Origin: an uncultured virus (IMG/VR IMGVR_UViG_2061766007_000148)
Lineage: Duplodnaviria; Heunggongvirae; Uroviricota; Caudoviricetes
IMG/VR virus record: IMGVR_UViG_2061766007_000148
DNA: 35,199 nt
Direction: 5' to 3' (one strand)
The translations under genes and the position numbers were made by a program. Shown here piece by piece: positions 13,612 through 34,678 of the stretch; position 1 is the stretch's first letter, and the number at the start of each line of letters is the position of its first letter. The notes under the pieces are model-generated. The model was not told the origin of the DNA. It was given only the letters and a program-made list of their open reading frames with translations, and ran no database searches.

Positions 13612-13613
13612 TT

Positions 13614-19906: not shown

Positions 19907-19952
19907 TTTCTTTTCTCCCTAAATTTTGTCAATATATTCTCAGTGTATAAAC

Positions 19953-20729
19953 CTATCCGAAGTAAGTTAAAATCCCGCGGATTCTCTTACGTTCTTTCCA
20001 ACCCCGCAAGTATTCAAGTGCATTTGAATCCATCGCTTTATTGAACATTTTCTCGTCAAGTTTAATCAGTTCAAAGTTGTTTCGTGTCAGTTGTCTTCTT
20101 CTCCTTTTTTTAATAGATTCACCAACCTTATAATAATCCCAATCCTCATTATAATTCTTTAATTCTTTATCCAATTCTTCCTGTGCTTCGCGTAATGTCG
20201 ATCCATATGCCCACCAAAACTCTGCTTTTTCTGCGGGTTTTTCTACATATGCGTATTTGAAGTTATATACAGGGCGTTCTTTGATATATCCGGGTTTGAT
20301 TGATGGCTCTTTTGGTTCGTATTTACTTATTCTCTCTATTTCAGTTAATATTTTTATATCATTATCTCTATTCGTTATACCTACTTTTTCAAATACCGAA
20401 TTGGGTATAAATTTCAATAATTTAATATAATCTGCCCTTGAACCCCCAATTCCTATATGTGGATAATTTTGGCGGAGATATAATGGGATAACTGTTTTTA
20501 AGCCATATTTCCCCGTAATATCCACTGCTTTATCTTTACTGGCATAATACACCGGTCTATAAAAGCTCAATCCATCCATTCCGATGGCAACAACTTTGTT
20601 CTTATACAGAATCATTGTCATTAAACCATTAGATGTACGAATTCCTTTAACGATTTCAAAATTTCCGTCTTTTATGACTCGATAATTGTTTTTATCATAT
20701 ATGTTGTTGGTTTTACGTGTAGTTGTCAT
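19953..20729 (-). CDS. Array protein, KDG family + HicB-like C-terminal motif
   Basis: VIKDGNFEIVKGI, LYKNKV, TGKYGLKTV; AYGSTLREA. Confidence 0.85.
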   Translation of the reverse strand: MTTTRKTNNIYDKNNYRVIKDGNFEIVKGIRTSNGLMTMILYKNKVVAIGMDGLSFYRPVYYASKDKAVDITGKYGLKTVIPLYLRQNYPHIGIGGSRADYIKLLKFIPNSVFEKVGITNRDNDIKILTEIERISKYEPKEPSIKPGYIKERPVYNFKYAYVEKPAEKAEFWWAYGSTLREAQEELDKELKNYNEDWDYYKVGESIKKRRRRQLTRNNFELIKLDEKMFNKAMDSNALEYLRGWKERKRIRGILTYFG

Positions 20730-20758
20730 TTTGTTTCCTCCTTAATATTTTCAAAGCC

Positions 20759-21250
20759 TTATTTTTTCAATCTCAGGTTTATTTTTTTGTAATTCTTTGA
20801 GTAGTTATTCCAATCATCTCCATATTTGTGTATGAAGGCATGATTACTTCTCATAATGCGTGATTGAGCAAGATCTCGTGGAATCAACCGTTCAAAAATA
20901 GATTCGGGTATCACATCAATAATCTCCGGGAGACATTTTGCAAAATGAAATTGCGGATATATTTTTCGGCTGTTTATAACCGATATCACAGTCTTAGGAC
21001 TGAATCTGTTTACGGCATATTCTCCAGATGCCCCATTCCGTGGTATGTATATCAATGTTCTAAAGTCATTTGCCCAAAAAATACACAGGACTTTATTCTT
21101 ATATGTGATTATGTCCATTTTATTTGGGTAATCTGGCTGACTTTTAAAAGGAACATTTTCCATTAATCCAAAATCTCCGTCTTTAAAAATTGGATAGTTG
21201 TATATACTGTTGCTGTTCTGTTTTGATGTTGATTTACGTGTTGTTGCCAT
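20759..21250 (-). CDS. Array protein, KDG family
   Basis: YPIFKDG, TYKNKV, RFSPKTV. Confidence 0.85.
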   Translation of the reverse strand: MATTRKSTSKQNSNSIYNYPIFKDGDFGLMENVPFKSQPDYPNKMDIITYKNKVLCIFWANDFRTLIYIPRNGASGEYAVNRFSPKTVISVINSRKIYPQFHFAKCLPEIIDVIPESIFERLIPRDLAQSRIMRSNHAFIHKYGDDWNNYSKNYKKINLRLKK

Positions 21251-21274
21251 TTTCTTTTCCCCCTTTAATTTAAT

Positions 21275-21817
21275 TTACCGTCGTAACGACGTTTTTCCAG
21301 ACCGTCTCCGTCTTGCACGATTGCGAATGGCTATTTTTTCTAATTCTTTATCAATTTCCGCTATAATAATCCCTGTGCGATCAGATGACGTAAATCCAAG
21401 GTATGGGATATTGGCATCTTTTATTTTCATATTGAGTGTTCGGGAAATTTCCTGTGCTTTATCCCCACCTTTCACAATAGCACTCAAATATTGTTTTTCA
21501 GTCACAGGGATTAACTGAACTTTCTGTTTAGGAATATCTATTGGATTAATTTTTGACGTTAATCCTCTTGAGTAATAATCAACTCTTCCGTCATTTTTAG
21601 ATGCAAGACGGGAATACCATAATAATCTGTCTTTGCGAACAGTATTTTTATTTTTACCGGATGGGATTTCAATATAATCTATTACAGGTTCATATGGGGC
21701 GTAATGTCCGTAATACTTGTCATAGATTTCTGAACGATTTACTTTTTTCCTCATAGATGGGGTATATGCGATTACCCTTTGTGGTTTGTGCTTTTGTTTT
21801 GTTGATTTTGTGGTCAT
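21275..21817 (-). CDS. Array protein, SGKTSLRR family
   Basis: Paralog of 26812 and 31402. Confidence 0.85.
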   Translation of the reverse strand: MTTKSTKQKHKPQRVIAYTPSMRKKVNRSEIYDKYYGHYAPYEPVIDYIEIPSGKNKNTVRKDRLLWYSRLASKNDGRVDYYSRGLTSKINPIDIPKQKVQLIPVTEKQYLSAIVKGGDKAQEISRTLNMKIKDANIPYLGFTSSDRTGIIIAEIDKELEKIAIRNRARRRRSGKTSLRR

Positions 21818-21835
21818 TTTATCCTCCGATTCATA

Positions 21836-22279
21836 TTATTTCCTATATGAAATGCTATGGAGATACTTTTCCCAAGTCATGTCATTGTAATACTTGCCCA
21901 TAATCGATTTTTTAATTGATTCTCTTGAGATACCTAATGATTTTAATATTGAACTTGGGAACATTTCCACCAATTCGGGATCGTGATATCTGAGAGATAT
22001 ACCGGGATATCTGTTTGGACTATTTAGAAGTGCAAATACTTTGTTTAATCCGTATTTTCCCGATATGTCTACACTTGGATCATATGCTCCTTTGGAGTAT
22101 ATGGGCTTTGCAAGCAATCCGTTATGAGCAATGGCAAGCACTTTGTTTTTATACAAAATCAGAGTCACTGTTGACGGATAATCATAGTTTGTGGGTATTC
22201 CTTTGATTATTTCATAATATCCGTCTTTGATGACCGGATATTTTGTAACATCTTTTGTAGTTTTTCTTGTTGTCGGCAT
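21836..22279 (-). CDS. Array protein, KDG family
   Basis: YPVIKDGYYEII, LYKNKV, SGKYGLNKV. Confidence 0.85.
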   Translation of the reverse strand: MPTTRKTTKDVTKYPVIKDGYYEIIKGIPTNYDYPSTVTLILYKNKVLAIAHNGLLAKPIYSKGAYDPSVDISGKYGLNKVFALLNSPNRYPGISLRYHDPELVEMFPSSILKSLGISRESIKKSIMGKYYNDMTWEKYLHSISYRK

Positions 22280-22319
22280 TGTTTTCCCCCTTTTGATAAG
22301 TATGTTTTCTTAAAAGGAA

Positions 22320-22340
22320 TATTTAAAAATACATTATAAT
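22320..22340 (-). promoter_or_regulatory. ATTATAATGTAT + TATA (TTTAAATA), leftward array promoter
   Basis: Conserved 12-mer at the operon head. Confidence 0.75.
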
Positions 22341-22380
22341 GCGACATTCCGCCATTTTTATGGGATTTGTGCCGTCAATC

Positions 22381-22406
22381 CCCGAATTATAATGTATTTT
22401 TATATA
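22381..22406 (+). promoter_or_regulatory. ATTATAATGTAT + TATA (TTTATATA), rightward array promoter
   Basis: Divergent partner of 22320-22340. Confidence 0.75.
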
Positions 22407-22510
22407 TTGTTTCAAACAAATCACAAAACAGTAATTTATCCGCAAGTTCAGCTACACACGATTTGCCGGGGATGATTTACGTATTTGAATCCAAAGAAGG
22501 GGGATTAAAA

Positions 22511-22942
22511 ATGCCATCAAGCACAAAGAAATCAACTAAAAAAACAACAAAAAACAAAAATTATCAGAATTATAATCATGCCAATTACAGAGACGAGGTA
22601 TATGAGATAATTACGGGTAAAAGATCTGAAATTCCCGCTGGCAAGAAATTGTATCTGGCATATGCTAACGCTGATTCTAAACCAGCCCTTCCTTTATGGG
22701 AGGGGGGTTACCCATTAACTCACTTTACGACTAATCGGCGAGAACTTATCTTTGAGAGACATGGAAGTACAGGAGCAGGTCGTAATTTTTACTTAGCTTT
22801 ACGTGCTCCCGACAGAATGCCGCGAATATATATCACATCAATGCCGATGAAAAAATTTGCTCGTAAATTTGATCAAGACAATATCAGATCGGAGATACGT
22901 CACAAGAGAGTAACTAAAGGTAAAAAATCGTATAGATCATAA
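22511..22942 (+). CDS. Array protein, RHKRVT family (chimeric N-terminus)
   Basis: GGGGG RBS; C-terminal RHKRVTKGKKSYRS. Confidence 0.85.
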   Translation: MPSSTKKSTKKTTKNKNYQNYNHANYRDEVYEIITGKRSEIPAGKKLYLAYANADSKPALPLWEGGYPLTHFTTNRRELIFERHGSTGAGRNFYLALRAPDRMPRIYITSMPMKKFARKFDQDNIRSEIRHKRVTKGKKSYRS

Positions 22943-22967
22943 ATTCAAAAAAAAGGGGGAAAACAAC

Positions 22968-23399
22968 ATGGTAACAACAAGAAAATCTACAAAAAAGAAC
23001 AGTAATCAGGTTTACAATCATCCGGTTTACAGAGACGGTGCTTATGAGATAATTACCGGTATTCACATCACATCTCCAAAAAATGAGTATCATACAAAGG
23101 GATTGCCTGTTTCATTTGTGACTTATAAAGGCAAAGTGATTGCAGTTATTACATATGGTTATTATACGCCCTTGTTGTGGTGGTTAGGTTATGTACCTGA
23201 CAAATTCTGTGAGGATCATCATATTTCTGAGGATGTATCTGGCAGATACAGCCCTAAAACAGTTATAAATATGTTAAATAATACAGATAAATTCCCATAT
23301 CTTGTATTTAGACCGGGATCTGATATGTATAATATATTACCCGCATCTGTTTTAATGAAATTGGGTTTTAGGAGAGGGATGTGGTCTCGCAAGAGATAA
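22968..23399 (+). CDS. Array protein, KDG family
   Basis: VYRDGAYEII, TYKGKV, SGRYSPKTV. Confidence 0.85.
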   Translation: MVTTRKSTKKNSNQVYNHPVYRDGAYEIITGIHITSPKNEYHTKGLPVSFVTYKGKVIAVITYGYYTPLLWWLGYVPDKFCEDHHISEDVSGRYSPKTVINMLNNTDKFPYLVFRPGSDMYNILPASVLMKLGFRRGMWSRKR

Positions 23400-23437
23400 A
23401 ACCATTATCATTATATATTCAGAAAAAGGGGGGAAAT

Positions 23438-23826
23438 ATGACAAATATAAGATTAAAATCACCTCAAACTGTAAAACCAACAAAATTATACGGGTATCCG
23501 TGTTTTAAATACGGGGATTGGAGAGTCATTCGTAAGATCCCTACATATTTCGGGGAACATCTCTCGATGGTCACGTATAAAAATAAATTTGCATATTTNN
23601 NNNNNNNNNNNNNNNNNNNNNNNNNNNNNNNNNNNNNNNNNNNNNNNNNAAAGATTATGATCTCGATATTGGATTCCGTGGGATTTATACACCTAAACAA
23701 GTTATCTCAATAATTCAAACTCCTATATCATGGAAGGATCGTTATTGGGTTATTTGGATGCTTGAGGGGTATTCTGGAATATACCCAAAAGAAGTAGAAG
23801 TGTTTTTGAATCGTGATAATATTTGA
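23438..23826 (+). CDS. Array protein, KDG family; spans an N gap
   Basis: YPCFKYGDW, TYKNK; after the gap GIYTPKQVISII...NRDNI*. Confidence 0.7.
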
Positions 23827-23844
23827 TTATTAGGGGGAAAAAAT

Positions 23845-24840
23845 ATGGCATCAAGAATAAAGGAAATTAGAAAAGAAAAGAGAAAACGTCGCAGAGAATT
23901 ATTCATCCGCAATCTTGTTGCGGATATTAAAGGTCTGCCGACAACACTTGATTTTAAGATAAGTAATGCAAAAACTGCCGTCAACAGATACCGGGTTAAA
24001 CGGCGTGTTGCTCAGATAGAGCGTAATCGTGCAAAACGAGAGGCTGAAGAACGGGCAAGAGCTTATGCACCTGATGATGTTGACGATTACGACGATGACT
24101 ATGAAGAAGATTTCGATGACGATTATGAAGAATATTCTCCGAAATCACGGGTAAGGTCATCCGGCAAGAGGACTCGCCCGGCATCGTCACGCAGCGGGTC
24201 GGGTGCCGTCGTTGCGAAGAAAGCGGCGGCGGTAATGGGTCAGTTCTTGAAGAATGCCGCGGCTAACATGGTCTCGGACGGCGAGTCAACAAAGTCCGTA
24301 AGATTCTGGGATGAGGGCAGACCTCCTTGGGAGACTCACCCCGAAGCCTACCAACCGAAAAGACAGACTCCGAGGAGGAGTCCGCCGAAATCGAGAGGTT
24401 TTGACTTCGGCGATGTCGGGTTTGGGGGTTTTGACAGTATGTCGATGCCGTCTTCAAAGCCGAAACGCAAATCCGTGAAATCATCTGCGTATTCGGACAT
24501 GTCGCGGTTGCCGTGGGATTCCCCGTCAGGTCGGGGTTCATCCCGGTCGCCCGCACCGCGGGAGGACTTCGGCGGCATGAGACGGTCGGGGTCGTCGATG
24601 CGTAAGAGCACGGATGATTTCATCAACGGATATCAGCTCAGCATTTCGCGTGACGGCACGGTTGGTTCAGCTTACAAGGGCGGCAGACACTACATTCCGT
24701 ATCACAAGGTGAAACGCGGTGAAAAAATCTATTGGATGCCGTGTATCAATCGCTATGAGCCTGCCGAAATCAGACCGTTGATTGCCCGCAAGGTCTTCAA
24801 GTGGGTATCCGAAGAACAGCATATGAACAGAGGGTATTAA
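23845..24840 (+). CDS. Array protein: basic/acidic/RS-rich low-complexity regions + YTPE-type domain
   Basis: MGQFLKNAAANMVSDG block shared with 25420; C-terminal INGY...RYEPAEI. Confidence 0.85.
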   Translation: MASRIKEIRKEKRKRRRELFIRNLVADIKGLPTTLDFKISNAKTAVNRYRVKRRVAQIERNRAKREAEERARAYAPDDVDDYDDDYEEDFDDDYEEYSPKSRVRSSGKRTRPASSRSGSGAVVAKKAAAVMGQFLKNAAANMVSDGESTKSVRFWDEGRPPWETHPEAYQPKRQTPRRSPPKSRGFDFGDVGFGGFDSMSMPSSKPKRKSVKSSAYSDMSRLPWDSPSGRGSSRSPAPREDFGGMRRSGSSMRKSTDDFINGYQLSISRDGTVGSAYKGGRHYIPYHKVKRGEKIYWMPCINRYEPAEIRPLIARKVFKWVSEEQHMNRGY

Positions 24841-24879
24841 CCCAAAATCAATTTATTTCAAAAATAGGGGGAAAAGAAA

Positions 24880-25398
24880 ATGGCAAAAAAGTATGAGTAT
24901 ATCACAACACAGTATAGAGAACCTAAGAAACAGGTACGCGCAAAACATGATCCTTTTATGACACACTCTGTCGGGAATCATATATATTATGCAAATATTG
25001 CCTCAAAAAAACCAATTCAGTGGTCATTTGGAACAATGTATTTTAAACATGGGGCACCAGCCGGGGATTTGGTAATACGCCCACGGGAAGAACGTCTTGC
25101 CATAGAGAGAGGTGCTATAAGTTCTGGTGAAAAGAGTTATGAAATTAAGCGTAAAAGCCAACCCCGTGCATACCATGTAAAAGGCATACCGGAATATGTT
25201 TCTTTGAGACAATATGTAGCACCTTATGATTATGCTACAAATATTCAGGAAAGAATCAAACTCAGTAAAAAAGAACCTCGTGTGATAATCTCCCCTGAAG
25301 AACTGGAATATAATCCGGTAGAGGCTATTAGATATAATCTTGCGAAAATTGCACGGCACAAGCGTGTTACCAGAGGTAAAAAGTCATTCAGGTCATAA
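24880..25398 (+). CDS. Array protein, RHKRVT family
   Basis: YYANIASKKP; ARHKRVTRGKKSFRS. Confidence 0.85.
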   Translation: MAKKYEYITTQYREPKKQVRAKHDPFMTHSVGNHIYYANIASKKPIQWSFGTMYFKHGAPAGDLVIRPREERLAIERGAISSGEKSYEIKRKSQPRAYHVKGIPEYVSLRQYVAPYDYATNIQERIKLSKKEPRVIISPEELEYNPVEAIRYNLAKIARHKRVTRGKKSFRS

Positions 25399-25419
25399 TT
25401 TCAAATAAGGGGGAAAATC

Positions 25420-25974
25420 ATGGTATCAACATCAACAAAAAAGAAGGTTGCGTCGGGTGCAAAGAAAGTCGGCGCATTTATGGGGCAGTTTTTGAAAAAT
25501 GCCGCGGCAAACATGGTCTCGGATGGCGGGACAACAAGGTCTGTGGGATTCTGGGATGAGGGCAGACCTCCTTGGGAGTTATATCCCGACCCCTATGAAT
25601 CCAAGCGGAAATCCGGTTCGGGCGGTTCAGGTGGTTCGAGAGGTTCAGGTTCATCGCGGTCGAAGAAATCTTCATCCTCGTCACGCGGCGGTTCGGGTTC
25701 AACGTCCCGCAAGAGTTCACGGGGCGGTTCCCGTGAAAGTTCACGCGGCGATGTCATTAACGGCTACGTCCTCGACCTTGCTGCGGACGGCACCGTAAAA
25801 TCAGCTTACAAGAATGGCAGAACCTACATTCCGTATGCTCTTTTCAGCTACACGGACGGCGATTATTGGGAGTCCTGTATCAGGGAATACACGCCCGATG
25901 AAATCCGGGAGTTCATCCGGCAAAAGGCGTTTAGATGGGTCGATGAAGAAAAGCACAACGGAAGGAGGGGATAA
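25420..25974 (+). CDS. Array protein: SRG-rich linker + YTPE domain
   Basis: Paralog of 23845. Confidence 0.85.
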   Translation: MVSTSTKKKVASGAKKVGAFMGQFLKNAAANMVSDGGTTRSVGFWDEGRPPWELYPDPYESKRKSGSGGSGGSRGSGSSRSKKSSSSSRGGSGSTSRKSSRGGSRESSRGDVINGYVLDLAADGTVKSAYKNGRTYIPYALFSYTDGDYWESCIREYTPDEIREFIRQKAFRWVDEEKHNGRRG

Positions 25975-25976
25975 TT

Positions 25977-26393
25977 ATGGCGGCAAAGAAAAATACATCA
26001 TTATTAGGTCGTGGTATTGCAAATAACAAATCAACACGCAAAAATTCAGATATATCGACAGGGAGTAATATCCAGTATAAAACAATGAATGGGTATCTTC
26101 TCGTAATTGCTCCAAGCGGCAGAGTGGGTGTTGCTTTTAAAAATGGTAAAATGTATATTCCGCATATAAAGTGTAGAAATGATATTGGGGTATTTTGGGC
26201 AACCTGTCATGAATCCTACACCCCGGATGAGATAAAAGATTTAATTCGTAATAAATCCTTTAGGTGGATAGAGTACGATAAAGCATATAGTAGTTATGGA
26301 GATGCTATAAGAGATGGACGTAAACATATCCCGTGGGCAAATTCTCATTCACTATATAAGGGTACGTTCGGGGGATCGTCGTTGAGACGTTAA
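25977..26393 (+). CDS. Array protein, YTPE domain
   Basis: NGYLL..GRV..KNGKMYIP..SYTPDEI; ends SSLRR. Confidence 0.85.
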   Translation: MAAKKNTSLLGRGIANNKSTRKNSDISTGSNIQYKTMNGYLLVIAPSGRVGVAFKNGKMYIPHIKCRNDIGVFWATCHESYTPDEIKDLIRNKSFRWIEYDKAYSSYGDAIRDGRKHIPWANSHSLYKGTFGGSSLRR

Positions 26394-26420
26394 TTCAAAT
26401 AAATCTAAGGGGGAAACACT

Positions 26421-26810
26421 ATGGTTATTAATTCAAATATACAGTCTGAAATTTATAAATTCTCAAATGGGGATTCTTATGAAATAATTCCTCGTGTTTA
26501 TATGCCGAATACTGGTATGTATTATACACTTATTTCAAAAAATAATAGAGTAGTGCTCGCTTGGAGTCCGGGAGACGGATTTCATGACGGGCTTTATCCG
26601 AGAGGATTTTACATCCCATCTAAAGTGGTGTATTATCCTGCGGGCAAATTTGTTGGGCAATTCAGCAGAGGTCTTGCACCGTCTACATTAATGTCTCGTA
26701 TGGCAAATAATTCAAAAAAAGAGACAATATTTATGAGTTATCTTTTCGCTGAAGATCGTGCAAGAAAGATATTACCAAAAAAGATATATGAAATATTTAT
26801 GAGGTGGTAA
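26421..26810 (+). CDS. Array protein, divergent KDG family
   Basis: GDSYEII, LISKNNRVV; GGGGG RBS. Confidence 0.8.
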   Translation: MVINSNIQSEIYKFSNGDSYEIIPRVYMPNTGMYYTLISKNNRVVLAWSPGDGFHDGLYPRGFYIPSKVVYYPAGKFVGQFSRGLAPSTLMSRMANNSKKETIFMSYLFAEDRARKILPKKIYEIFMRW

Positions 26811-26811
26811 T

Positions 26812-27327
26812 ATGACAACAAAAAAAACATCTAAGAAAATAACATCTGCAATAAGTAGGCAAAGGGAATTAGTTACATATTCTCCGTCATTGATGTTAAG
26901 AGTTAATTATCTTTATGATGATTCTTATAAATATGACCGACAATTTGTTCCATTTGTAATAACGGATTCTGTATATAACATAAGAAATACACTACTGCGA
27001 TATGCATTACGTGGTATGTTATATACAAAAACAGGTCGTCCAGTTAAACCGGATGAGGTTGATAAGTATATACACAGTGTCTATTCAGTTTCAATACCAA
27101 CCAATATTAGAAAACGTGCTTATAATAAGGGAAATACTTATGCATTTGAAAGGTTCTCAAATATTATCGCGAAAGAGACCTTAGATTCCAAAGATGTCGA
27201 TGAATTATATCGTAATCTAAAATTTGAAGAAATTGCTAAAGAGTTTGGAAAGGTTGCTCAGAAATCACATGCAAGAAAAAGACGCTCTGCGGGATTACAA
27301 TCATGGTCAAGGAGATATACATCATGA
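26812..27327 (+). CDS. Array protein, SGKTSLRR family
   Basis: MTTKKTSKK, TYSPSL, VPFVI, ARKRRSAG. Confidence 0.85.
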   Translation: MTTKKTSKKITSAISRQRELVTYSPSLMLRVNYLYDDSYKYDRQFVPFVITDSVYNIRNTLLRYALRGMLYTKTGRPVKPDEVDKYIHSVYSVSIPTNIRKRAYNKGNTYAFERFSNIIAKETLDSKDVDELYRNLKFEEIAKEFGKVAQKSHARKRRSAGLQSWSRRYTS

Positions 27328-27599: not shown

Positions 27600-27627
27600 A
27601 ACACGTTCGCAACCTTGGAACCGGAGA

Positions 27628-27667
27628 TTATCGGGGGAATCTGCCGATAAACCCAAATCATTTTTTT
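27628..27667 (+). terminator. Hairpin followed by T-tract
   Basis: TTATCGG/CCGATAA stem, then a T7 run just before the next promoter. Confidence 0.55.
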
Positions 27668-27680
27668 AAACACCTCTTCT

Positions 27681-27705
27681 CCGTTATTATAATGTATTTA
27701 TAAAT
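27681..27705 (+). promoter_or_regulatory. ATTATAATGTAT + TATA (TTTATAAA)
   Basis: Conserved 12-mer. Confidence 0.75.
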
Positions 27706-27806
27706 ATACGCACGCATCAACTCTTATATCGATAGTTCTGGTTGAAACTCACTGAATACATAGTTTCAAGCGAATTATATTGTTCAAATCCATTAAGGGG
27801 GAAAAT

Positions 27807-28457
27807 ATGGCAACAAAAAGAATTACACATATTGACAATCCACTTTCTAAAAAAATGATGGTTGAGGGGTTAATAGGTTATCCAAGAAGAATCTCACAGA
27901 TGGATAAATATTACTCAAATCTTAATTCCTCAAAACATAATAGGGGTTCGATGAGTGATTTACCACCTCGTCCTAAAAAAGATAAGAGATATTATCCAAT
28001 ATCACCAATTAGATCAATTCCTGATGTAGGTTACAAAACACCTATTGAGGCATATTTTGCGTATTTTAGGAACCCTTATGACACTTATTATTCGGAAGTC
28101 CACGGGAATCCGGTAACCAAAAGTGCGGTAGCTACGGAATTAAATCGGCAAATAAAGGTCTTATATGCCCCGTATGAAGAGGATATAGCATTTTATGAGT
28201 CTTATTTTTCACCGGAAAATTTAAGTCATTACCCAGATCCGGGGAACAGTTTGCGGGATCCTATGCCTCGTATGAATTATTTCATCAATTATGCTACGGC
28301 AAGGTTAAAAATAATGAGACCTACAAACAGAGCATTCATGCCCGAACCGGAACATTATGCTCGACACAGAAGCAGTTCTTCACGATCACGTCGGAGAGTA
28401 CCTGTTCTTAGTGATAAACACGGTACCAAAAAATATGGTAGTCTTGATAGGAGATAA
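27807..28457 (+). CDS. Array protein, unique core
   Basis: MATKR start after GGGGG; tail ARHRS...GSLDRR. Confidence 0.8.
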   Translation: MATKRITHIDNPLSKKMMVEGLIGYPRRISQMDKYYSNLNSSKHNRGSMSDLPPRPKKDKRYYPISPIRSIPDVGYKTPIEAYFAYFRNPYDTYYSEVHGNPVTKSAVATELNRQIKVLYAPYEEDIAFYESYFSPENLSHYPDPGNSLRDPMPRMNYFINYATARLKIMRPTNRAFMPEPEHYARHRSSSSRSRRRVPVLSDKHGTKKYGSLDRR

Positions 28458-28496
28458 TCATTTGACGTATTTTAAATTATTCATTAAGAGGTAAAA

Positions 28497-28958
28497 ATGA
28501 CAAAATATGTTGCAAGTAAATACCGAGGATATGTATATAAATTAGATAAATATGGGTGTGTTTCCCGAATTTATTATTATCCTCCGTCAGGTAAAAAAGG
28601 AAAGTTCTCAGATAAAATTTTGGAAATTGTCCCATGGTTTACCACACCGGTCGGTGCTGATAGGGCAATTGGGGAATATACCCCTGAAGAAGTCGATTAT
28701 AGATTGTCTGATTATTCAGATAGTGAACTCTTTATGTATGAAACAAAATGGGTTGATGCGAATTCTTTAAAAATCACACAAAAGAAAATGGCAATTCCAA
28801 AAGATAGGGATGTTTCTGTTTATTCAGACGATTGGCGGACGTTGAAAAATTCGGATATTAATTATCACAGGAAGCAATACCCTATTGAATCCTCAAAAAA
28901 CATTATCCGAAGACGTAGCCGAATAAATCCGTATGGAAATCCTAAAAGATGGATTTGA
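28497..28958 (+). CDS. Array protein, YTPE domain; paralog of 34046
   Basis: MTKYVAS..GY..PPSGKK..EIVPWF..GEYTPEEV. Confidence 0.85.
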   Translation: MTKYVASKYRGYVYKLDKYGCVSRIYYYPPSGKKGKFSDKILEIVPWFTTPVGADRAIGEYTPEEVDYRLSDYSDSELFMYETKWVDANSLKITQKKMAIPKDRDVSVYSDDWRTLKNSDINYHRKQYPIESSKNIIRRRSRINPYGNPKRWI

Positions 28959-28999
28959 TGGTATAATATTTAATGGTATAATATTTTGGTGAGGATACA

Positions 29000-29092
29000 A
29001 TGACCAATATTACAGTTTATAGAGTTGAACAGGGAAGATCAATTAACTTTGCGGCAAAATTACCGTATGAGTTACGTCCATATTATAAATAA
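29000..29092 (+). CDS. 30-aa mini-ORF (MTNITVYRVEQ...)
   Basis: GAGG RBS; NITVY also occurs near the N-terminus of 32365. Confidence 0.45.
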   Translation: MTNITVYRVEQGRSINFAAKLPYELRPYYK

Positions 29093-29104
29093 GGGTAATT
29101 TGAA

Positions 29105-29176
29105 ATGGTAACTAAAAAAACCGCACGTCATCGCCGCATAACAAGGAAGAGCAAATCGCCGTTGGAGAGACGTTAA
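29105..29176 (+). CDS. 23-aa 'tags-only' ORF MVTKKTARHRRITRKSKSPLERR
   Basis: Array-type N-terminus fused directly to an array-type C-tail. Confidence 0.6.
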   Translation: MVTKKTARHRRITRKSKSPLERR

Positions 29177-29195
29177 AAAAGGATGTGAGTACATT

Positions 29196-29603
29196 ATGCC
29201 CTATACAAGTCCGCAGTCTCAAAAAGAGCAAAAATACTGGACTCAATTAAAAAATCATTCATATTATCTATATACTGAATATCCTTCGGGGATGATTGAT
29301 ATTCATGATGTATGGAGATCAAAATCGGATGCCGCAAGATCTGCACGGGATTATGCACGAGAAAATCCGCACGGGCAAAGAAGAAATGTGGTAGCCAGAT
29401 TCAGTGCAAAACAAATGGATGATATAATACAGACATATAAGAAACACATGTTCGGTTCGGAGTGGACAAAACACAGATGGGACACACATTGGAAACCGGG
29501 TGTTCCTTTTATGAAAGATTTCATCAACAGCACTCCAACATGGAACAAAGTGGTTGATTATATGGTATATAACCGGAAGAATGATACAAGATACGATTGG
29601 TAG
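29196..29603 (+). CDS. Array protein, unique core
   Basis: 135-aa ORF in operon. Confidence 0.75.
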   Translation: MPYTSPQSQKEQKYWTQLKNHSYYLYTEYPSGMIDIHDVWRSKSDAARSARDYARENPHGQRRNVVARFSAKQMDDIIQTYKKHMFGSEWTKHRWDTHWKPGVPFMKDFINSTPTWNKVVDYMVYNRKNDTRYDW

Positions 29604-29615
29604 GGGGAATACAAA

Positions 29616-30176
29616 ATGACATCTACAAGCAAAACAACATCAAAGAAGACATCCGCAAAAACATTCTTTGATAAAATGAAACTATTAAACGATGAAAATA
29701 AGTGGGACACACAATTAAAAAAGATATCAACAAATAAATCCGGGAATCCAGTATATTTAGAAAAATCAATCGGAATGGATATTGATTATTATATTAACAA
29801 TAATCATATTGCACGAGTAAATAATGAAACAGGGAATATTCATTGGTATGTTAATGAAAAAACTCTACCAAGCAAAGCAATTTATGAGATATTAAAAGAC
29901 TCTCGAAATAGGATTCTTGAACGCGAAAATGCATATCTTTCAGCTATAAAAGACATTGATAATCAAATAAAAAAAGAAGCCTCATGGTGTAAAAAACAAG
30001 GTATGAATTATGAACAAACAATCAGACATTTGGAGAATTCATACGATTTCAGGACACTATTAGATAATAGAAACGTTGTAAAAAATAGATTAAATGAACT
30101 TTATGAGACTCGTAATAGCATTACATCAAACAGAGAAAAAGCCATCCACACATATTCGTCAAAGCGTCGCAGATAA
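29616..30176 (+). CDS. Array protein, TLPSK family
   Basis: KKTSAK, WYVNEKTLPSK, REKAIHTYSSKRRR. Confidence 0.85.
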   Translation: MTSTSKTTSKKTSAKTFFDKMKLLNDENKWDTQLKKISTNKSGNPVYLEKSIGMDIDYYINNNHIARVNNETGNIHWYVNEKTLPSKAIYEILKDSRNRILERENAYLSAIKDIDNQIKKEASWCKKQGMNYEQTIRHLENSYDFRTLLDNRNVVKNRLNELYETRNSITSNREKAIHTYSSKRRR

Positions 30177-30224
30177 ATCATATTTCTATTTTTGAATTAT
30201 TACTCAAAACCTTGTTTTGCATCT

Positions 30225-30248
30225 CCGATTATAATGTATTTTTATTAA
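30225..30248 (+). promoter_or_regulatory. ATTATAATGTAT + TATA-like (TTTATTAA)
   Basis: Conserved 12-mer. Confidence 0.75.
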
Positions 30249-30281
30249 TTCCCTTTAACAAATTGATTATCGGGAGATATC

Positions 30282-30494
30282 ATGGCTTATATTTATAACG
30301 CACCGTACGGTTACACACTCGTGACCGATGATCACGGGCGTGTCGTAGGGGTCTTGACTCCCGACGGCGGAGACTATCTGAAACCGTATGTTGCGGTCAG
30401 AGGCTCAATTACCGAAGTCAAGGACTGTATCGGGAAATATACGCCTGAGCAATTCCGCAAGAAACTGTATAACAAATCAGTCTATCTTGATTGA
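30282..30494 (+). CDS. Minimal stand-alone YTPE-domain protein
   Basis: YGYTLVTDDHGRVVG..KPY..CIGKYTPEQ. Confidence 0.85.
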   Translation: MAYIYNAPYGYTLVTDDHGRVVGVLTPDGGDYLKPYVAVRGSITEVKDCIGKYTPEQFRKKLYNKSVYLD

Positions 30495-30516
30495 GTAAAG
30501 AAAGGGGGAAAACAAA

Positions 30517-30758
30517 ATGGCAACAAGAAAATCAAAGAAAGAAGTCACAGGCGCTTACGGCTGTGAATTTATTACGAATGGCAAAGGACGTGTCGTGGGT
30601 GCATGGTGCCCGCCGAGGTCGGCTGCCGGAGAACTCGGCAGACAGTATAGAATNNNNNNNNNNNNNNNNNNNNNNNNNNNNNNNNTGAGTGTGTCGGCGA
30701 ATACACACCCGAACAGACACGCAGAAAGATGTATGAGGGCACGCTGTCCTTCCACTGA
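30517..30758 (+). CDS. YTPE-domain protein; spans an N gap
   Basis: MATRKSKK, GRVVG; after the gap ECVGEYTPEQTRRKMYEGTLSFH*. Confidence 0.75.
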
Positions 30759-30780
30759 TTGATGATAGGGGGAATATGAA

Positions 30781-31371
30781 ATGGTGACAAAAAAACAACA
30801 TTTGATTAACTTATGGTCTGCTTGGGGATACAAATTTCATACAAACAGAAACGGAAATGTAATATATGTTATAGAACCGTCGAATGACAGTAGAAGACCG
30901 CCAACATTATTATACCTTTATGAGTTGGACAAACCAAAGCTCAACATGGTATCTGCATGGGGTAAATACACCCCGGAACAGGCTCTAAACAGATTTGCGG
31001 AAAGAAAACTTTGGACATCCACTGAAAAGTTTAAAGCAGTGGATCAGATCTATGATCCTTTTGGGAGGACATGGTATTACTTCAGCCCGAAAAATGGTAT
31101 ATATTATGCTGAGAATTACCCCAATCCGCAACAATGGGCTGAAAAAGGATATCCGAGGAAACAGGCAAATCGCTATGTGAAAGGTCCTGCAAAGAGTATC
31201 TTAAAACTTGATGATGATGGGTATGTTGAAAGAGTAATTACAAAAGACGGTTCACATAAATCGCCAGTTCACGTTGTGCCTTCAGGCTCCTATGTTCTCG
31301 GTTCTAATAAGAAATACACGCCTGAGCAAGTAAAGAGAAAGTGGTATAACAAAACAATGGATTTCATTTGA
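30781..31371 (+). CDS. Protein with two YTPE domains
   Basis: GKYTPEQA and KKYTPEQV. Confidence 0.85.
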   Translation: MVTKKQHLINLWSAWGYKFHTNRNGNVIYVIEPSNDSRRPPTLLYLYELDKPKLNMVSAWGKYTPEQALNRFAERKLWTSTEKFKAVDQIYDPFGRTWYYFSPKNGIYYAENYPNPQQWAEKGYPRKQANRYVKGPAKSILKLDDDGYVERVITKDGSHKSPVHVVPSGSYVLGSNKKYTPEQVKRKWYNKTMDFI

Positions 31372-31401
31372 AATCCTGTATTTTTCAAAGGAGGAAACAA
31401 A

Positions 31402-31873
31402 ATGACAACAAGAAAATTAACTACAAGAAAAAGAAGACCCGCATCGTCAAAGACGAGATTTATAAACTATACTCCCGGATTGCAATATAAAGATGAATCA
31501 AAACATTCACACCCTGTACCATATGTAATATATGGTGCTTCTCCAAGGGAGCCACATTACATATATTATTTAGAAGATGATGCTCATTTTGGTCATCTGC
31601 GTGATCGGGATGGACGTAGGGTAAATGAGTTTGATTTTATTGATNNNNNNNNNNNNNNNNNNNNNNNNNNNNNNNNNNNNNNNNNNNNNNNNNNCTCAGA
31701 AAAAAATAGACAAAATAGCGGCATTAAGAGATGAGGCAGATCGTATCCGAGGATATACAGGAATGGATGCCCCGTTCAACATACGCGAAGCCTCCTATGA
31801 GGTTATGGCAGATTTAGCCCGCAGAACCCGTATGAGAAAAAGAAAGTCTGGAAAAACGTCTTTAAGACGTTAA
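31402..31873 (+). CDS. Array protein, SGKTSLRR family; spans an N gap
   Basis: MTTRKLTTRK, NYTPGL, PYVI; ends RKRKSGKTSLRR. Confidence 0.8.
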
Positions 31874-31896
31874 ATCTATTTTTTAGGGGGAATACA

Positions 31897-32340
31897 ATGG
31901 TCATAAACAAAACAGGTACATGGAAACACTATTTGGAAATAAGGGGTAGAAAAATACCTGTGCCATACGAGTGGTATGATAAATACGGGAATGACATGGA
32001 AAGACACTATGTACCGTATGCAAGAGGATCCCAATTTTGGGATTATAAGATAGTTACATCCGGTCGAAATCCACACGAAGCAAAGGAGGCATTATTGAAT
32101 ATCTATCCTTTTTCACCAGCAGATATGGATAAAATGAAGATCCATACTTTCTGGGCATCCGAATCCGAGATTGAACGTGCAAGAAAAAGGGCTGTAAGAA
32201 AGATTCAATCTGATCGTAAAAAGAAGGGGTTAGCACCTGCAAAAGCATATCATGAAATTATGGGTGAAGCAGATCGATTAGTTATCGGAAAACTCCGTTC
32301 AGACAGAGTTCGCAAGAGAACTCGCACGCATAGGAGATAA
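31897..32340 (+). CDS. Array protein
   Basis: GGGGG RBS; ends RKRTRTHRR. Confidence 0.8.
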   Translation: MVINKTGTWKHYLEIRGRKIPVPYEWYDKYGNDMERHYVPYARGSQFWDYKIVTSGRNPHEAKEALLNIYPFSPADMDKMKIHTFWASESEIERARKRAVRKIQSDRKKKGLAPAKAYHEIMGEADRLVIGKLRSDRVRKRTRTHRR

Positions 32341-32364
32341 ATATAATTTATAGGGGAAATTAAA

Positions 32365-32772
32365 ATGACAAATTCGGAAAATAATATCACTGTATATAAT
32401 TCACAACCGTTAGGGGGAGGGAGGTATGAAATAACACCTCAACCGAAAAGAACTGATGGATGGGGTTTAGTTCTTGATTTTTACAATCCACGCGCCGCAC
32501 CATCAAATTTCGAGACATTTAATTGCCTTACATACAATGGGAAGGTAATTATCGTAGAGAATAATGGTATATTCTATTATCCATATACTTTAAAATACAA
32601 TGGTCATGATCGAGGAATCGGATATTCGAGAATAAAAATAGGGGGTGGTAAATATACATTCAAAACATTTGCATGGCATGTTTATTGGCATGGATGGATA
32701 TATGAACAAATTCCAAAAAAAGATGTCTCAAAATTTGTGCCTAATGCGGTGCTTAAAGCCATGGGATACTAA
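32365..32772 (+). CDS. Array protein, divergent KDG family
   Basis: RYEIT, LTYNGKVI, GKYTFKT, VPNAVLK. Confidence 0.8.
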   Translation: MTNSENNITVYNSQPLGGGRYEITPQPKRTDGWGLVLDFYNPRAAPSNFETFNCLTYNGKVIIVENNGIFYYPYTLKYNGHDRGIGYSRIKIGGGKYTFKTFAWHVYWHGWIYEQIPKKDVSKFVPNAVLKAMGY

Positions 32773-32810
32773 TCTCACAAAATCATATCTTTTTTGCGTA
32801 TAAATTATCT

Positions 32811-32836
32811 CCCGAATTATAATGTATCTTTAAGAA
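32811..32836 (+). promoter_or_regulatory. ATTATAATGTAT + TATA-like (TTTAAGAA)
   Basis: Conserved 12-mer after a T-tract. Confidence 0.75.
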
Positions 32837-32885
32837 TACCCTTTGAGAATACATATTACTCAATCTCAAAATAGGGGAAAAGAAA

Positions 32886-33215
32886 ATGACATCTGATTAC
32901 ATAAAATTGGTAAGACACGGTTCAGGTAAACGGCAAAAGAGATTTGCCGTTGTCGATTCCGACGGATCAGCCATATACGGCATCGGATCTACCAGACAGG
33001 GCGCTCTCGAAGACGCGATAGGCTACATAAAATATTCCCGCATACCGTGGAATGGTTCGCGTGATGCAAAGGACTATCCCGACCGTCCTGTAAGGGGCAT
33101 AGGCATCTACATCCGCGAGGTTCCCGGACGGGTGGCAAAGTATGTCGAGACCGTCAACAACGGCAGAGATGCCGTGGAATACATGCTCATTCAGGACATG
33201 AAACGCAGGAAATAA
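32886..33215 (+). CDS. Array protein with HicB-like motif
   Basis: YGIGSTRQGALEDA; ends KRRK. Confidence 0.8.
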   Translation: MTSDYIKLVRHGSGKRQKRFAVVDSDGSAIYGIGSTRQGALEDAIGYIKYSRIPWNGSRDAKDYPDRPVRGIGIYIREVPGRVAKYVETVNNGRDAVEYMLIQDMKRRK

Positions 33216-33237
33216 TCTAAAATTAAGGGGGGAAAAT

Positions 33238-33627
33238 ATGGGTGTTAAAATCTATTCAAACAAAAGATACGGCAGACTTCTTAACGACAATGACGGTTTT
33301 GGTTGGGATTATGTCCTAAACAAAAACAACAAAGTTGTTTTCAGATTGGCTGACATTCATCGTGATGCTCTTCCGCCACGCGGGTCACCGTGGGGTTCGG
33401 GTGACTACGGATATTTGTATGTTGAAATGGTGCCTCTTAAAAAAGTCACATCACGAAATGGCGGTACCCGGTATGTCAGTTGTAGGGACAAATATACTTG
33501 GGATACACTGAGTAAAAAAATGGAGTCTGGGGACATCATATTCCAAGATAAGCATTACCGGCATATGAATCGCCGTCGGCAACACAGTACGCCCTATTAT
33601 GCGTATTATTCATCGATAGAAAATTGA
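33238..33627 (+). CDS. Array protein, divergent YTPE domain
   Basis: GWDYVLNKNNKVV..VP..SCRDKYTWDTL. Confidence 0.8.
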   Translation: MGVKIYSNKRYGRLLNDNDGFGWDYVLNKNNKVVFRLADIHRDALPPRGSPWGSGDYGYLYVEMVPLKKVTSRNGGTRYVSCRDKYTWDTLSKKMESGDIIFQDKHYRHMNRRRQHSTPYYAYYSSIEN

Positions 33628-33666
33628 AGGAATAAAAAAGAAGTATTGAATCTAAAAGAGGATATT

Positions 33667-33757
33667 ATGAAAGAACTCGATATTGATTAAATAAACAGAA
33701 TATTTTGACAGACAATCAAATTATAAAAAGAGATGATTCAGATGGTTACAAAGAAAA
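33667..33757 (+). repeat. ~90-bp leader repeat copy 1 with uORF MKELDID
   Basis: Similar to 34589-34678. Confidence 0.8.
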
Positions 33758-34032
33758 CAAGTAAAAAACAACCGGATTCTCTTACGAACAGAGAAAAAAT
33801 AGGAAATGCATGGCGGGCATATGACGGCAGTATCAGGTACTACGTCAACGACTGGAAGGACATGATCGGACNNNNNNNNNNCCCGATGAGCAATTCCCAC
33901 TACAACAAATACATTTCCGGCACCAAGGTCTGGATTGACGAGAATGACGGGATCCATGTAGATTATTGTAGGGATGGCGAGATTAAGTCCGCCATCATCA
34001 AGGCGGTCAGCAAGGAACTCAAGAAAAAATAA
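33742..34032 (+). CDS. Array protein (short gap inside)
   Basis: MVTKKTSKK...ELKKK. Confidence 0.8.
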   Translation: MVTKKTSKKQPDSLTNREKIGNAWRAYDGSIRYYVNDWKDMIGXXXXPMSNSHYNKYISGTKVWIDENDGIHVDYCRDGEIKSAIIKAVSKELKKK

Positions 34033-34045
34033 GGGGGAAAAGAAT

Positions 34046-34564
34046 ATGACAAAATATGTAGCAAGTATATATGCGGGATACACTTACCGTTTAAATAACA
34101 AAGGATTAGTGAATCGTATCTATTATCATCCGCCGTCAGGGAAAAAAGCAAAATTTCCTAATAAAGTATTGGAGATTGTGCCGTGGTTTACAGCAGATCA
34201 TCGTGCTGAAGAGGCAATCGGCGTATATACACCTAATGAAGTTGATTTGAAATTATTTAGCGGGGAATTATACCTGTTCAAAACCAAATGGGTCGATGCT
34301 GATTCACTAAAAATAACGCAAAAGAAAATGGCAATCCCTAAAAATAGGTCTCCAACAGTTTACTCGGATGATTGGAAAAAATATGTTCCATATCGTAACG
34401 ATGCGAGAGCTTGGATGCCTCACGAATTAGAACTCAAGCAAGATTATAATCCATATCGAATAGAGAATCCTGTTGAAAGTTATGAATCTTTAGCAAGGCG
34501 GGGTAAACCATTATTCCCGCAAAAAGGAGATCCTTTTTACAAACCATCAATCAGATGGAAATAA
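34046..34564 (+). CDS. YTPE-domain protein; paralog of 28497
   Basis: GGGGG RBS; GVYTPNEV; KITQKKMAIPK shared. Confidence 0.85.
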   Translation: MTKYVASIYAGYTYRLNNKGLVNRIYYHPPSGKKAKFPNKVLEIVPWFTADHRAEEAIGVYTPNEVDLKLFSGELYLFKTKWVDADSLKITQKKMAIPKNRSPTVYSDDWKKYVPYRNDARAWMPHELELKQDYNPYRIENPVESYESLARRGKPLFPQKGDPFYKPSIRWK

Positions 34565-34588
34565 TTGGTAATAATAGGGAGTAAATAT

Positions 34589-34678
34589 ATGTCAGAACTT
34601 GATATTGATTAATTTAACAGAATATTTTGACAGACACTCAAACTATAAACGGAGAGATAAGGATGGTTACAAAGAAAA
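34589..34678 (+). repeat. ~90-bp leader repeat copy 2 with uORF MSELDID
   Basis: GATATTGATTAA..AACAGAATATTTTGACAGACA..GATGGTTACAAAGAAAA. Confidence 0.8.

Follow-up and report, generated by a model that had tools for sequence, protein, structure and literature searches.

A Diversified Superfamily of Small Proteins in the All-Basic Gene Block of an Uncultured Virus Record

Introduction

What would a mobile element gain from carrying the same small protein domain many times over, in different versions and in different settings? The question is raised by a 35,199-nucleotide stretch of an uncultured virus assigned to the Caudoviricetes (IMGVR_UViG_2061766007_000148), called here the window at its full length, in which one short sequence pattern recurs between positions 19,953 and 34,564. 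A preliminary description, made from the sequence alone, had named this pattern YTPE after its most conspicuous motif, had suspected that seven proteins of a second kind (KDG) possess the same fold, and had proposed that both are the product of an arms race. Here, we find that the YTPE pattern marks a genuine domain family, that YTPE and KDG proteins are supported as one lineage-restricted superfamily with KDG as its distant members, and that 16-17 of the 31 genes of a ~16-kb block belong to it. The superfamily is previously undescribed, and its fold is probably a new small fold. As to what the block does, the reading that we favour, tentatively and with somewhat less than even confidence, is that it serves a virus- or plasmid-like element from a rumen prokaryote (probably Methanomicrobium) as an accessory arsenal of host-directed, nucleic-acid-associated effectors, co-regulated and highly expressed. 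The mobile elements of rumen methanogens are almost unknown, and their hosts matter for methane emission.

Results

The YTPE Domain and Its Settings

A hidden Markov model (HMM) of the domain was seeded with the eight clearest copies and iterated, with E-values scaled to 100,000, over a set of 742 sequences. This set comprised the six-frame open reading frames (ORFs) of at least 45 amino acids (aa) from the window and from L001 (20.2 kb of a 75-kb metagenome contig, which holds the same families in another order and 11 superfamily genes), a number of fetched proteins and the reversed decoys of all these. The model converged on 10 domains of ~65 aa in nine window proteins, with domain E-values between 1e-11 and 1e-22, and decoys and wrong-frame ORFs all stayed at E 10 or above; the ORFs to the left of 19953 were never matched by the iterated YTPE or KDG profiles. 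The conserved columns are those of the pattern first described, a real pattern that far exceeds chance expectation.

In an alignment of the eight clearest copies, G19, V21, Y53 and P55 are invariant (in the numbering of 30282; genes are named here by their first coordinate). Among 22 sequences of less than 80 % identity, the conserved columns of the N-terminal half are G10, an aromatic residue at 11, (Y/L/F)13, (I/L)15, (N/D)16, G19 and V21, and those of the C-terminal half are P35, Y36, C/A49, G51, Y53, T54, P55, (E/D)56 and (Q/E)57. The core hairpin that follows the aromatic-G-aromatic strand keeps G19 in 19 of these 22 sequences and V21 in 21, and the G-x-Y-(T/S/G)-(P/L) cap keeps Y53 in 21, T54 in 19 and P55 in 20. 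The members are:

30282-30494 (+): stand-alone YTPE protein of 70 aa, the reference for the fold (HMM domain E 1.3e-22)
30517-30758 (+): stand-alone YTPE protein of ~79 aa, cut by the masked run 30654-30685 (HMM E 1.8e-11)
30781-31371 (+): tandem double YTPE protein of 196 aa, domains at aa 9-80 and 131-196 (HMM E 2e-16 and 1.1e-15)
23845-24840 (+): protein of 331 aa with a C-terminal YTPE domain at aa 255-321 (HMM E 7.2e-20)
25420-25974 (+): protein of 184 aa, a Ser/Gly/Arg-rich low-complexity region followed by YTPE at aa 108-174 (HMM E 8.4e-22)
25977-26393 (+): YTPE protein of 138 aa, domain at aa 32-98 (HMM E 2e-19)
28497-28958 (+): YTPE protein of 153 aa, domain at aa 4-80 (HMM E 1.2e-12)
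34046-34564 (+): YTPE protein of 172 aa, paralog of 28497 (HMM E 3.3e-17)
33238-33627 (+): divergent YTPE protein of 129 aa with a "YTW" variant and a KDG-like NKNNKVV strand (HMM E 1.7e-12)
27324-27599 (+): candidate member only, 91 aa (sub-threshold, E 0.013 at the scaled size with the merged profile)

The domain thus occurs alone, doubled or appended to low-complexity sequence, as had been described, each arrangement being recovered as HMM domains in the genes listed, 33238 included. Nine of the proteins originally named are members; the tenth, 27324, matches only below threshold. It is one of three sub-threshold hits of the merged profile, together with the second domains of P0001 (E 0.0031) and of 30781 (E 0.045), and the only one of the three that is not already included as a protein.

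Several members are evidently related beyond the domain itself. The protein 23845, which runs from a basic coiled N-terminus through an acidic stretch (an Asp/Glu/Tyr run) and a Ser/Arg/Gly-rich low-complexity region to its YTPE domain, is a paralog of 25420 (blastp E 1.7e-51). A common C-terminal extension links 28497 and 34046 (blastp of 28497 to 33974, E 2.6e-54, the start of gene 34046 falling within ORF 33974), and 33238 has its L001 counterpart at 17960-18286. Over the low-complexity regions of 23845-24840 and 25420-25974, the local G+C content rises to as much as 0.49 from ~0.35 nearby, and a 9-base deletion at 25621 in the DNA run X3 lies within this part of 25420.

Some of the genes must be read across gaps. 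The window has six masked runs of N, 258 N in total (3398-3451, 4823-4883, 23599-23649, 30654-30685, 31645-31694 and 33872-33881), which do not preserve true length: the frame shifts across three of them, in genes 23438, 30517 and 31402, whose family-typical C-termini resume in another frame past the run, and at the position of the 10-N run in 33742, its L001 ortholog carries 19 extra residues (at least 57 bases). The apparent frame breaks in these three genes therefore mean nothing. In 30517, the other frame past the mask reads ECVGEYTPEQ...SFH, with the YTP motif at 30687-30755, and an intact relative, P0024, is 79 aa long.

The KDG Proteins as Distant Members

The seven proteins grouped as KDG do form a family, six of them (19953, 20759, 21836, 22968, 26421 and 32365) clearly so by both blastp and profile:

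19953-20729 (-): KDG-type protein of 258 aa (KDG HMM E 7.7e-62; blastp to 21836 E 7.5e-22)
20759-21250 (-): KDG-type protein of 163 aa (KDG HMM E 6.8e-51)
21836-22279 (-): KDG-type protein of 147 aa, the KDG member modelled with AlphaFold2
22968-23399 (+): KDG-type protein of 143 aa with a hypervariable centre at aa 31-91 (ortholog alignment)
23438-23826 (+): KDG-type N-terminus followed, past the masked run 23599-23649, by a C-terminal part containing GIYTPKQV
26421-26810 (+): KDG-type protein of 129 aa (KDG HMM E 5.3e-38)
32365-32772 (+): KDG-type protein of 135 aa (KDG HMM E 9.6e-31)

The seventh, 23438, was not included by the iterated HMM search and joins the family by N-terminal blastp only, because the rest of it is masked; the part before the mask matches 20759 and 21836 (E 1.7e-5 and 1.7e-4).

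That KDG and YTPE proteins share one scaffold, as had been suspected, is upheld by several kinds of comparison. The YTPE-only profile gives sub-threshold hits to KDG members only (26421 at E 0.36). Compared by hhalign, the KDG-only (21 sequences) and YTPE-only (49 sequences) profiles match with a probability of 89.6 % (E 1.9e-6 over 51 columns); earlier runs with small alignments gave 0.6 % and 5.5 %, and the register is identical in all three. This register places N-K-V-L-A-I on G-R-V-V-G-V, the N-K-V being in every run the KDG equivalent of the G-x-V hairpin of YTPE, and S-G-K-Y-G-L-N-K-V on I-G-K-Y-T-P-E-Q-F. Iteration of the KDG profile added first the divergent KDG-like genes of L001 and, in round 2, the double-domain YTPE cluster (E 1e-4), which it reached through the core and not through the N-terminal leader discussed below. 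It then took in nearly all YTPE proteins and converged at 68 sequences, with no reversed decoy, no wrong-frame ORF and none of the other basic families of the block.

There are also natural hybrids. P0038 combines the first 44 residues of 26421 with a GIYTPKQV-type C-terminal part like that of 23438, and the frame reading of 23650-23826 is identical to its last 58 aa. The L001 gene 15384 is KDG-like with G-R-L-T-P-E-S, and both 33238 and the L001 gene 17960 combine a KDG-like N-K-N-N-K-V-V strand with Y-T-W.

The predicted structures agree in outline. The AlphaFold2 model of 30282, from a 17-sequence alignment, has a predicted local distance difference test (pLDDT) score of 87.9 and a predicted template modelling (pTM) score of 0.71, and contains strands at 4-6, 12-15, 21-25, 35-38 and 46-48, a helix at 55-63 and a strand at 67-69, the short strands being antiparallel. 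That of 21836 (15 sequences; pLDDT 82.6, pTM 0.71) has strands at 16-19, 22-29, 37-43, 46-52 and 55-62, a helix at 78-85, a strand at 93-98 and then four helices, with two extra leading strands before the YTPE-like ones. Five strands are followed by a helix and a strand in both models, and the helix begins two residues past the conserved Tyr (Y76 in the KDG model). The models support a predicted common core of ~65 residues in which five antiparallel strands lead to a helix with a G-x-Y-(T/S)-P cap and then to a final strand; the conserved YTPE residues map in the model to the turns, the core and the helix cap.

It could be argued instead that KDG and YTPE proteins are unrelated, that their short G-K-Y-x-P motif and strand-rich composition arose by convergence, and that the superfamily is an artefact of profile drift in a small and biased set. 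The first two profile comparisons were indeed weak, the models were compared by element order alone, and a Foldseek search with the KDG model missed the phage proteins that the YTPE model matches (see below). Against this stand the strong match between the enriched profiles, the single register, the helix start at an equal offset from the Tyr in both models, the hybrids, and the fact that decoys, wrong-frame ORFs and other basic families of the block were never drawn in. The objection is now unlikely, its chance being slight. Because the profile-profile match, the transitive search, the element order of the models and the hybrids coincide, we treat YTPE and KDG as one superfamily, to which 16 of the 31 called genes of the block surely belong (17 domains), with one further gene as a candidate.

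The Search for Known Relatives

The preliminary description did not recognise the family, and neither do the libraries. Among 27 proteins, Pfam gave no match above cut-off and PHROG one weak match, none above cut-off. NCBIfam gave, for 30 proteins, one weak match below its cut-off (XopW to 29616, of family C; E 0.0016, 18.5 vs 200 bits). Each of these weak matches points to a different family. Sequence searches of the PDB with both profiles gave best E-values of 0.016 and 0.34, which we take as noise, Foldseek of the YTPE model against the PDB gave no match at E <=1e-3, and a structure search of the ESM Atlas gave no usable lead for YTPE (scores <=0.77) and none for KDG. The HMM thus does not map to a characterised family.

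Relatives do exist among uncharacterised proteins, but are rare. An exhaustive hmmsearch of 1,835,955,588 representatives found 25 proteins at E <=1e-3, of which 13 are small true members. The other 12, long proteins of 601-3141 aa matched by many partial stretches, were set aside as false; 11 of them have Pfam matches (several weak and below cut-off) and one has no Pfam family, and in seven the matches are clear and fall in surface-repeat families (SSSPR-51, Rib, InlB B-repeat, Big_3_5 and Laminin_G_3, for example). A collection of 5.77 billion proteins clustered at 90 % yielded 16 YTPE and 13 KDG clusters, and none of the relatives found is fused to a known domain.

At the level of fold, the sole likeness is to four uncharacterised phage proteins of 61-70 aa in BFVD (A0A8S5MDJ1, A0A8S5U2Q9, A0A8S5QLY6 and A0A858NNV6), which superimpose on nearly the whole length of the YTPE model with a TM score by query of 0.63-0.73 and a root mean square deviation of 1.8-2.9; their Foldseek E-values are only 0.019-0.085, their identity is 7-20 %, and the KDG model leaves them unmatched. 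The first hairpin of YTPE (aromatic-G-aromatic-x-hydrophobic-D/N-x-x-G-K/R-x-V) also resembles a WG repeat, and WG-repeat proteins head the ESM Atlas structure list for YTPE, with a TM score of 0.50 that means little on 57 residues. An origin from this repeat (PF14903) is unsupported, none of 17 members being matched at E up to 10, where the filters of HMMER drop most matches above E 0.1; WG repeats, moreover, form long arrays and have no helix cap.

An All-Basic Gene Block with Shared Leaders and Tails

The superfamily lies within a larger and peculiar unit:

18934-35184: block of basic proteins, ~16 kb, 31 genes called by ORF and ribosome-binding site

All-against-all blastp of the block reveals the further paralog families C (18934, 19430 and 29616), D (21275, 26812 and 31402) and E (22511 and 24880), plus single genes. 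Whatever its family, every one of the 31 products carries a net positive charge (+1 to +25), compared with six of the 29 genes to the left (p 2e-11). An N-terminal Ser/Thr-Lys/Arg leader, M-x-T-T-R-K-S/T-T-K-K, begins 15 of the 31 and three of the 29 left genes (p 0.0017), and a basic C-terminal tail (K-R-R-R, S-L-R-R or S-F/Y-R-S) closes 16 and three, respectively (p 0.00075). These counts hold when the three masked genes are read in their right frames, and both leader and tails are found across unrelated families. The leader Arg is encoded by CGT where genes run leftward and by AGA where they run rightward, which suggests that the peptide is constrained, beyond the DNA alone. The leader is disordered in the 21836 model (pLDDT 44). 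Of 49 non-identical domain cores, 44 are themselves net positive (mean +3.9), and a G-rich ribosome-binding site, e.g., A-A-G-G-G-G-G-A-A-A-A, precedes nearly every gene of the block. The uniform basic charge is the only pointer to nucleic acid.

Two rival explanations take this charge as their starting point. According to the main one, which we judge unlikely, the products are internal virion proteins, packaged and ejected with the genome, and the leader is a capsid-targeting or DNA-tethering tag. The T4-type internal proteins and the inner-body paralogs of phiKZ-like phages are likewise basic, carry a short conserved N-terminal tag on unrelated or fast-evolving proteins and are encoded by variable loci. 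An array of 31 basic products beside a block of acidic ones, one leader and similar basic tails on unrelated families, a 23-aa ORF at 29105-29176 with leader and tail only, and a high gene turnover, such as marks the T4-type loci, are all as this explanation would have it, and it accounts for the uniform charge and the common leader better than effectors do. Set against it are the absence of any structural gene or prohead protease in the window or L001, the lack of a conserved cleavage motif past the leader, the large number of different cargo proteins (~31) for a genome of 71-75 kb and the absence of the element from the viral contig collection. The two views may also be combined: packaged virion proteins may act in counter-defence on entry.

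The second, which we consider improbable, holds that these are general nucleic-acid-coating or chromatin-like proteins, whose role would be to compact the genome, to act on RNA as chaperones or to compete with the histones of the host, with no specific target. It is in keeping with the positive cores, the basic tails and the Ser/Arg/Gly-rich low-complexity regions of 23845 and 25420, and with the abundance that strong ribosome-binding sites and a shared promoter-like element suggest. Architectural proteins, however, are usually few and conserved, whereas here there are 16-17 paralogs that differ chiefly in a variable face, and close relatives are unlike in gene content.

Some shorter sequences of the block deserve mention. 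The 23-aa ORF at 29105-29176 (+), which has the shared basic leader, a basic tail and nothing more, and a 30-aa ORF at 29000-29092 (+) that resembles a KDG N-terminal fragment are probably the remnants of deleted cassettes. Conserved mini-ORFs of seven codons, MKELDID at 33667-33690 (+) and MSELDID at 34589-34612 (+), precede 33742 and 34663 within a 68-nucleotide (nt) repeat that is 87 % identical, and could be a leader peptide or a regulatory element. Finally, the leader core T-T-R-K-S-T (e.g., in 20759, 22968 and 19430) resembles the A-R-K-S-type motif of eukaryotic histone H3 tails; in a prokaryotic element, this likeness is most likely a coincidence.

A Repeated Promoter-Like Element

The exact 12-mer ATTATAATGTAT, followed by a T/A-rich box, occurs in six copies where 0.81 are expected, and none of 100 shuffles reaches six. 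It belongs to a conserved promoter-like element of ~30 nt, of which five copies lie within the block and the sixth at 4.69 kb:

22329-22397: divergent pair between the leftward and rightward gene sets, 12-mer at 22329-22340 (-) and 22386-22397 (+)
27686-27697 (+): copy ahead of 27807-30176 (exact 12-mer)
30228-30239 (+): copy ahead of 30282-32772 (exact 12-mer and alignment)
32816-32827 (+): copy ahead of 32886 onward (exact 12-mer and alignment)

The L001 variant of the element reads ATTGTAATG, and the variant ATTGTAATGTAT stands ahead of three superfamily genes there. In the block, sigma-70-type promoters are not enriched (76 vs 63 +/- 6.4), and neither are hairpin terminators (11 vs 12 +/- 3.3). 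A bacterial -10 reading of the element is spoiled by the L001 change; for this reason and for want of sigma-70-type enrichment, we lean to an archaeal site of the TATA/BRE (transcription factor B recognition element) type or a regulator site. Short contigs from the RNA libraries of three studies match parts of the block with few differences, and the parts that they leave uncovered are no evidence of silence.

Gene Turnover and Selection among Related Elements

The DNA of the window and of L001 forms a mosaic, in which blocks of 85-95 % identity alternate with stretches of no detectable similarity. The ratio of nonsynonymous to synonymous substitution rates (dN/dS) is 0.06-0.48 in all 12 ortholog pairs, and dS ranges from 0.03 to ~1.9 between neighbouring genes, from which it follows that the genes are real and constrained and that the region is recombinant. 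These values bear on the notion that the block ORFs are non-functional, either decaying duplicates or chance frames. The short remnants at 29000-29092 and 29105-29176 and three genes that look broken at masked runs might seem to speak for it; the masks do not preserve length, however, and ribosome-binding sites precede nearly every gene and the fold predictions are confident. Selection on the orthologs excludes such junk ORFs, an explanation that we find scarcely credible.

The stretch or part of it is present in 20 runs from 13 studies, nearly all of them recorded as ruminant gut or related metagenomes (bovine, goat, sheep, manure); two of the runs may be the source sample itself. In the DNA run X3, contigs skip whole genes or gene sets, 19368>19883 among them. 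The skip 20721>22269 joins the leader of 19953 to the region upstream of 21836, and 31405>32885 places 32886 at the start codon of 31402. One gene is lost in each of the skips 24875>25389, 26814>27329, 23396>23840 and 28991>29607, the last of which is also seen in run X19, and a whole promoter-to-end unit is lost in 27650>30202. The junctions lie at or beside gene boundaries, several at repeated ribosome-site/start-codon/leader sequences. Related elements thus differ by duplication, fusion and the precise gain or loss of whole genes.

Within the superfamily, the three ortholog pairs with L001 have dN/dS values of 0.17 (34046, 99 % identical to its ortholog), 0.14 (25420) and 0.26. Six aligned orthologs of 22968 show next to no variation in residues 1-30 and 92-143 and hypervariability in the central sheet (residues 31-91); dN/dS is 0.12 at the ends vs 0.60 in the centre, with dS saturated. 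The proposal that the scaffold has diversified in an arms race is therefore borne out only in part. Duplication, tandem doubling, fusion, gene gain and loss and the hypervariable central sheet all agree with it, but positive selection does not appear in dN/dS across relatives, which is 0.14-0.26 gene-wide and 0.60 even in the variable centre, at saturated dS. An arms race is plausible, and it is likewise plausible that the products bind host proteins or nucleic acid.

Discussion

Which Host, and to What End?

The KDG relative MBR6448231.1 is named after the genome bin of a Methanomicrobium sp. and sits on a contig of 71,097 bp, a length shared by the longest contig on record for a YTPE relative. 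The left third of the window encodes a radical S-adenosylmethionine (SAM) protein whose best tblastn match is 40 % identical, in a virus assigned to Methanomassiliicoccales, as well as an ASCH protein, a CcdA-like protein and two HFX_2341-like proteins, one with a DUF6293 winged helix; the HFX_2341-like and DUF6293 families are of archaeal type. The bin label, the archaeal-type Pfam families and the rumen habitat fit a methanogen host, in the reading favoured here probably Methanomicrobium.

We are led to a host-directed arsenal by the smallness of the scaffold, its variable central face, the many architectures built upon it (stand-alone and tandem forms, fusions to low-complexity regions, forms with added strands and helices), the common control signals, the leaders and tails and the cassette turnover. 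In such an arsenal, the stable core would serve as a scaffold that presents a variable binding face, and the basic tails might tether the proteins to nucleic acid or to host machinery bound to it. Such an arsenal would serve host takeover or counter-defence, and its repertoire could be renewed through recombination between the repeated 5' cassettes.

A number of points weigh against this reading. Effectors with many different targets would not be expected to share one basic charge and common leaders and tails; DNA co-packaging or a general nucleic-acid role is a better fit. Neither the 35-kb window nor the L001 stretch (20 kb) shows a capsid, terminase or replication gene, scans of IMG/VR with six proteins (28497, 25977, P0039, P0054, 13935- and 32886) found no relative, and the element may be a virus, a plasmid or something else. 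The bin label is weak evidence on the host and comes from one genome bin. No member of the superfamily has a known relative, and for the common YTPE/KDG scaffold the two predicted models were compared by the order of their elements. No dN/dS above 1 was found, in pairwise estimates that have little power where dS is saturated. The contigs from RNA libraries do not prove transcription. Finally, since the contig joints were placed at 85 % likeness in metagenomes, some may stem from more distant relatives.

Taken to its limit, the argument would describe a Methanomicrobium-associated rumen virus or virus-like element with an exchangeable array of ~30 co-regulated basic effectors, more than half of them built on an unseen fold. 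One short Ser/Thr-Arg/Lys tag, common to all at the N-terminus, and a basic tail would provide the address; loaded together with the genome, the proteins would enter the host and act there on histone-based chromatin, RNA machinery or defence. The repeats of ribosome site and leader would double as recombination sites for cassette shuffling, the whole amounting to a leader-guided counter-defence cassette system in archaea. We offer this as speculation, improbable in its entirety.

Known Systems and Significance

The phage internal proteins already discussed resemble the block in being basic, in their shared N-terminal tag, in forming paralog families and in the variability of their loci; the block differs in having no capsid or protease genes in view, no cleavage motif and far more genes. 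Multigene families are also a feature of the large eukaryotic DNA viruses.

The nearest described parallel, by analogy, is to be found in the early anti-defence gene sets of archaeal viruses (PMC11065993). There, early anti-defence genes share one strong promoter and the AcrID1 paralogs cluster, 26 of 35 of them in four rudiviruses (PMC11065993). In common with the block, these sets have many small genes of unknown function, adjacent paralogs, a variable accessory region and a conserved promoter or regulatory sequence repeated ahead of dissimilar genes. The block differs from what is described there in having operons and not single genes, in the shared leaders and tails of its uniformly basic products and in its host, at best a methanogen vs the Sulfolobales. 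No link of sequence or fold to a known anti-CRISPR protein (Acr) was found, in a PHROG scan that gave nothing and with no search of a dedicated Acr library.

The Borgs, extrachromosomal elements of archaea, contain multicopy gene families (PMC12660748). Like the block, they and the large eukaryotic DNA viruses have lineage-specific families that are expanded in one element and are read there as signs of host interaction; unlike it, their families are different ones, many with recognisable folds, whereas here the element is ~71-75 kb and the fold unmatched. Paralog-rich accessory regions of viruses and other elements are thus known; what is new is an all-basic, commonly addressed array in an uncatalogued rumen element. 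Among the papers listed by literature searches for viruses or plasmids of Methanomicrobium, none was on such an element.

What gives the case its interest is a superfamily present 16-17 times in a single element, commonly controlled, whose cassette turnover can be seen in gut samples of cattle, goat and sheep. Were its members host-directed effectors, they would offer new inhibitors or binders directed at archaeal machinery and a handle on the conflict between viruses and methanogens. A leader and a tail on unrelated proteins constitute a testable addressing signal, and the stand-alone 30282, with 70 aa, is an easy target for structure determination.

The Remainder of the Window

Searches at the level of DNA and of single proteins place the window apart. 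Megablast of both its halves against 50,697 phage records gave no close DNA relative, and a collection of species-genome contigs, searched with P0029 and 34046, gave no relative. Searched by tblastn, 28497 and 21836 against phages and 30781 against plasmids gave nothing relevant, the sole match being a stretch of Klebsiella tail fibre (E 0.2). No tRNA genes are present in the window.

The left third also encodes C5 and EcoRI-type N6 DNA methyltransferases. At 1744-3011 (+), outside the basic block, lies another small expansion, three paralogs in tandem (135-139 aa) whose N-termini resemble one another (MVT-x-x-QL-x-x-A-x-K-x-YK) and for which no family match was found. A leftward block of small and mostly acidic proteins (net -2 to -26) occupies 7432-18284 (-) and adjoins the all-basic block, from which it is parted by a 649-nt spacer without genes at 18285-18933. 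This spacer holds an 11-bp G+C-rich stem (CCCCGAAGATA ... TATCTTCGGGG) with runs of A and T on both sides, which a simple hairpin scan did not report and which looks like a two-way terminator.

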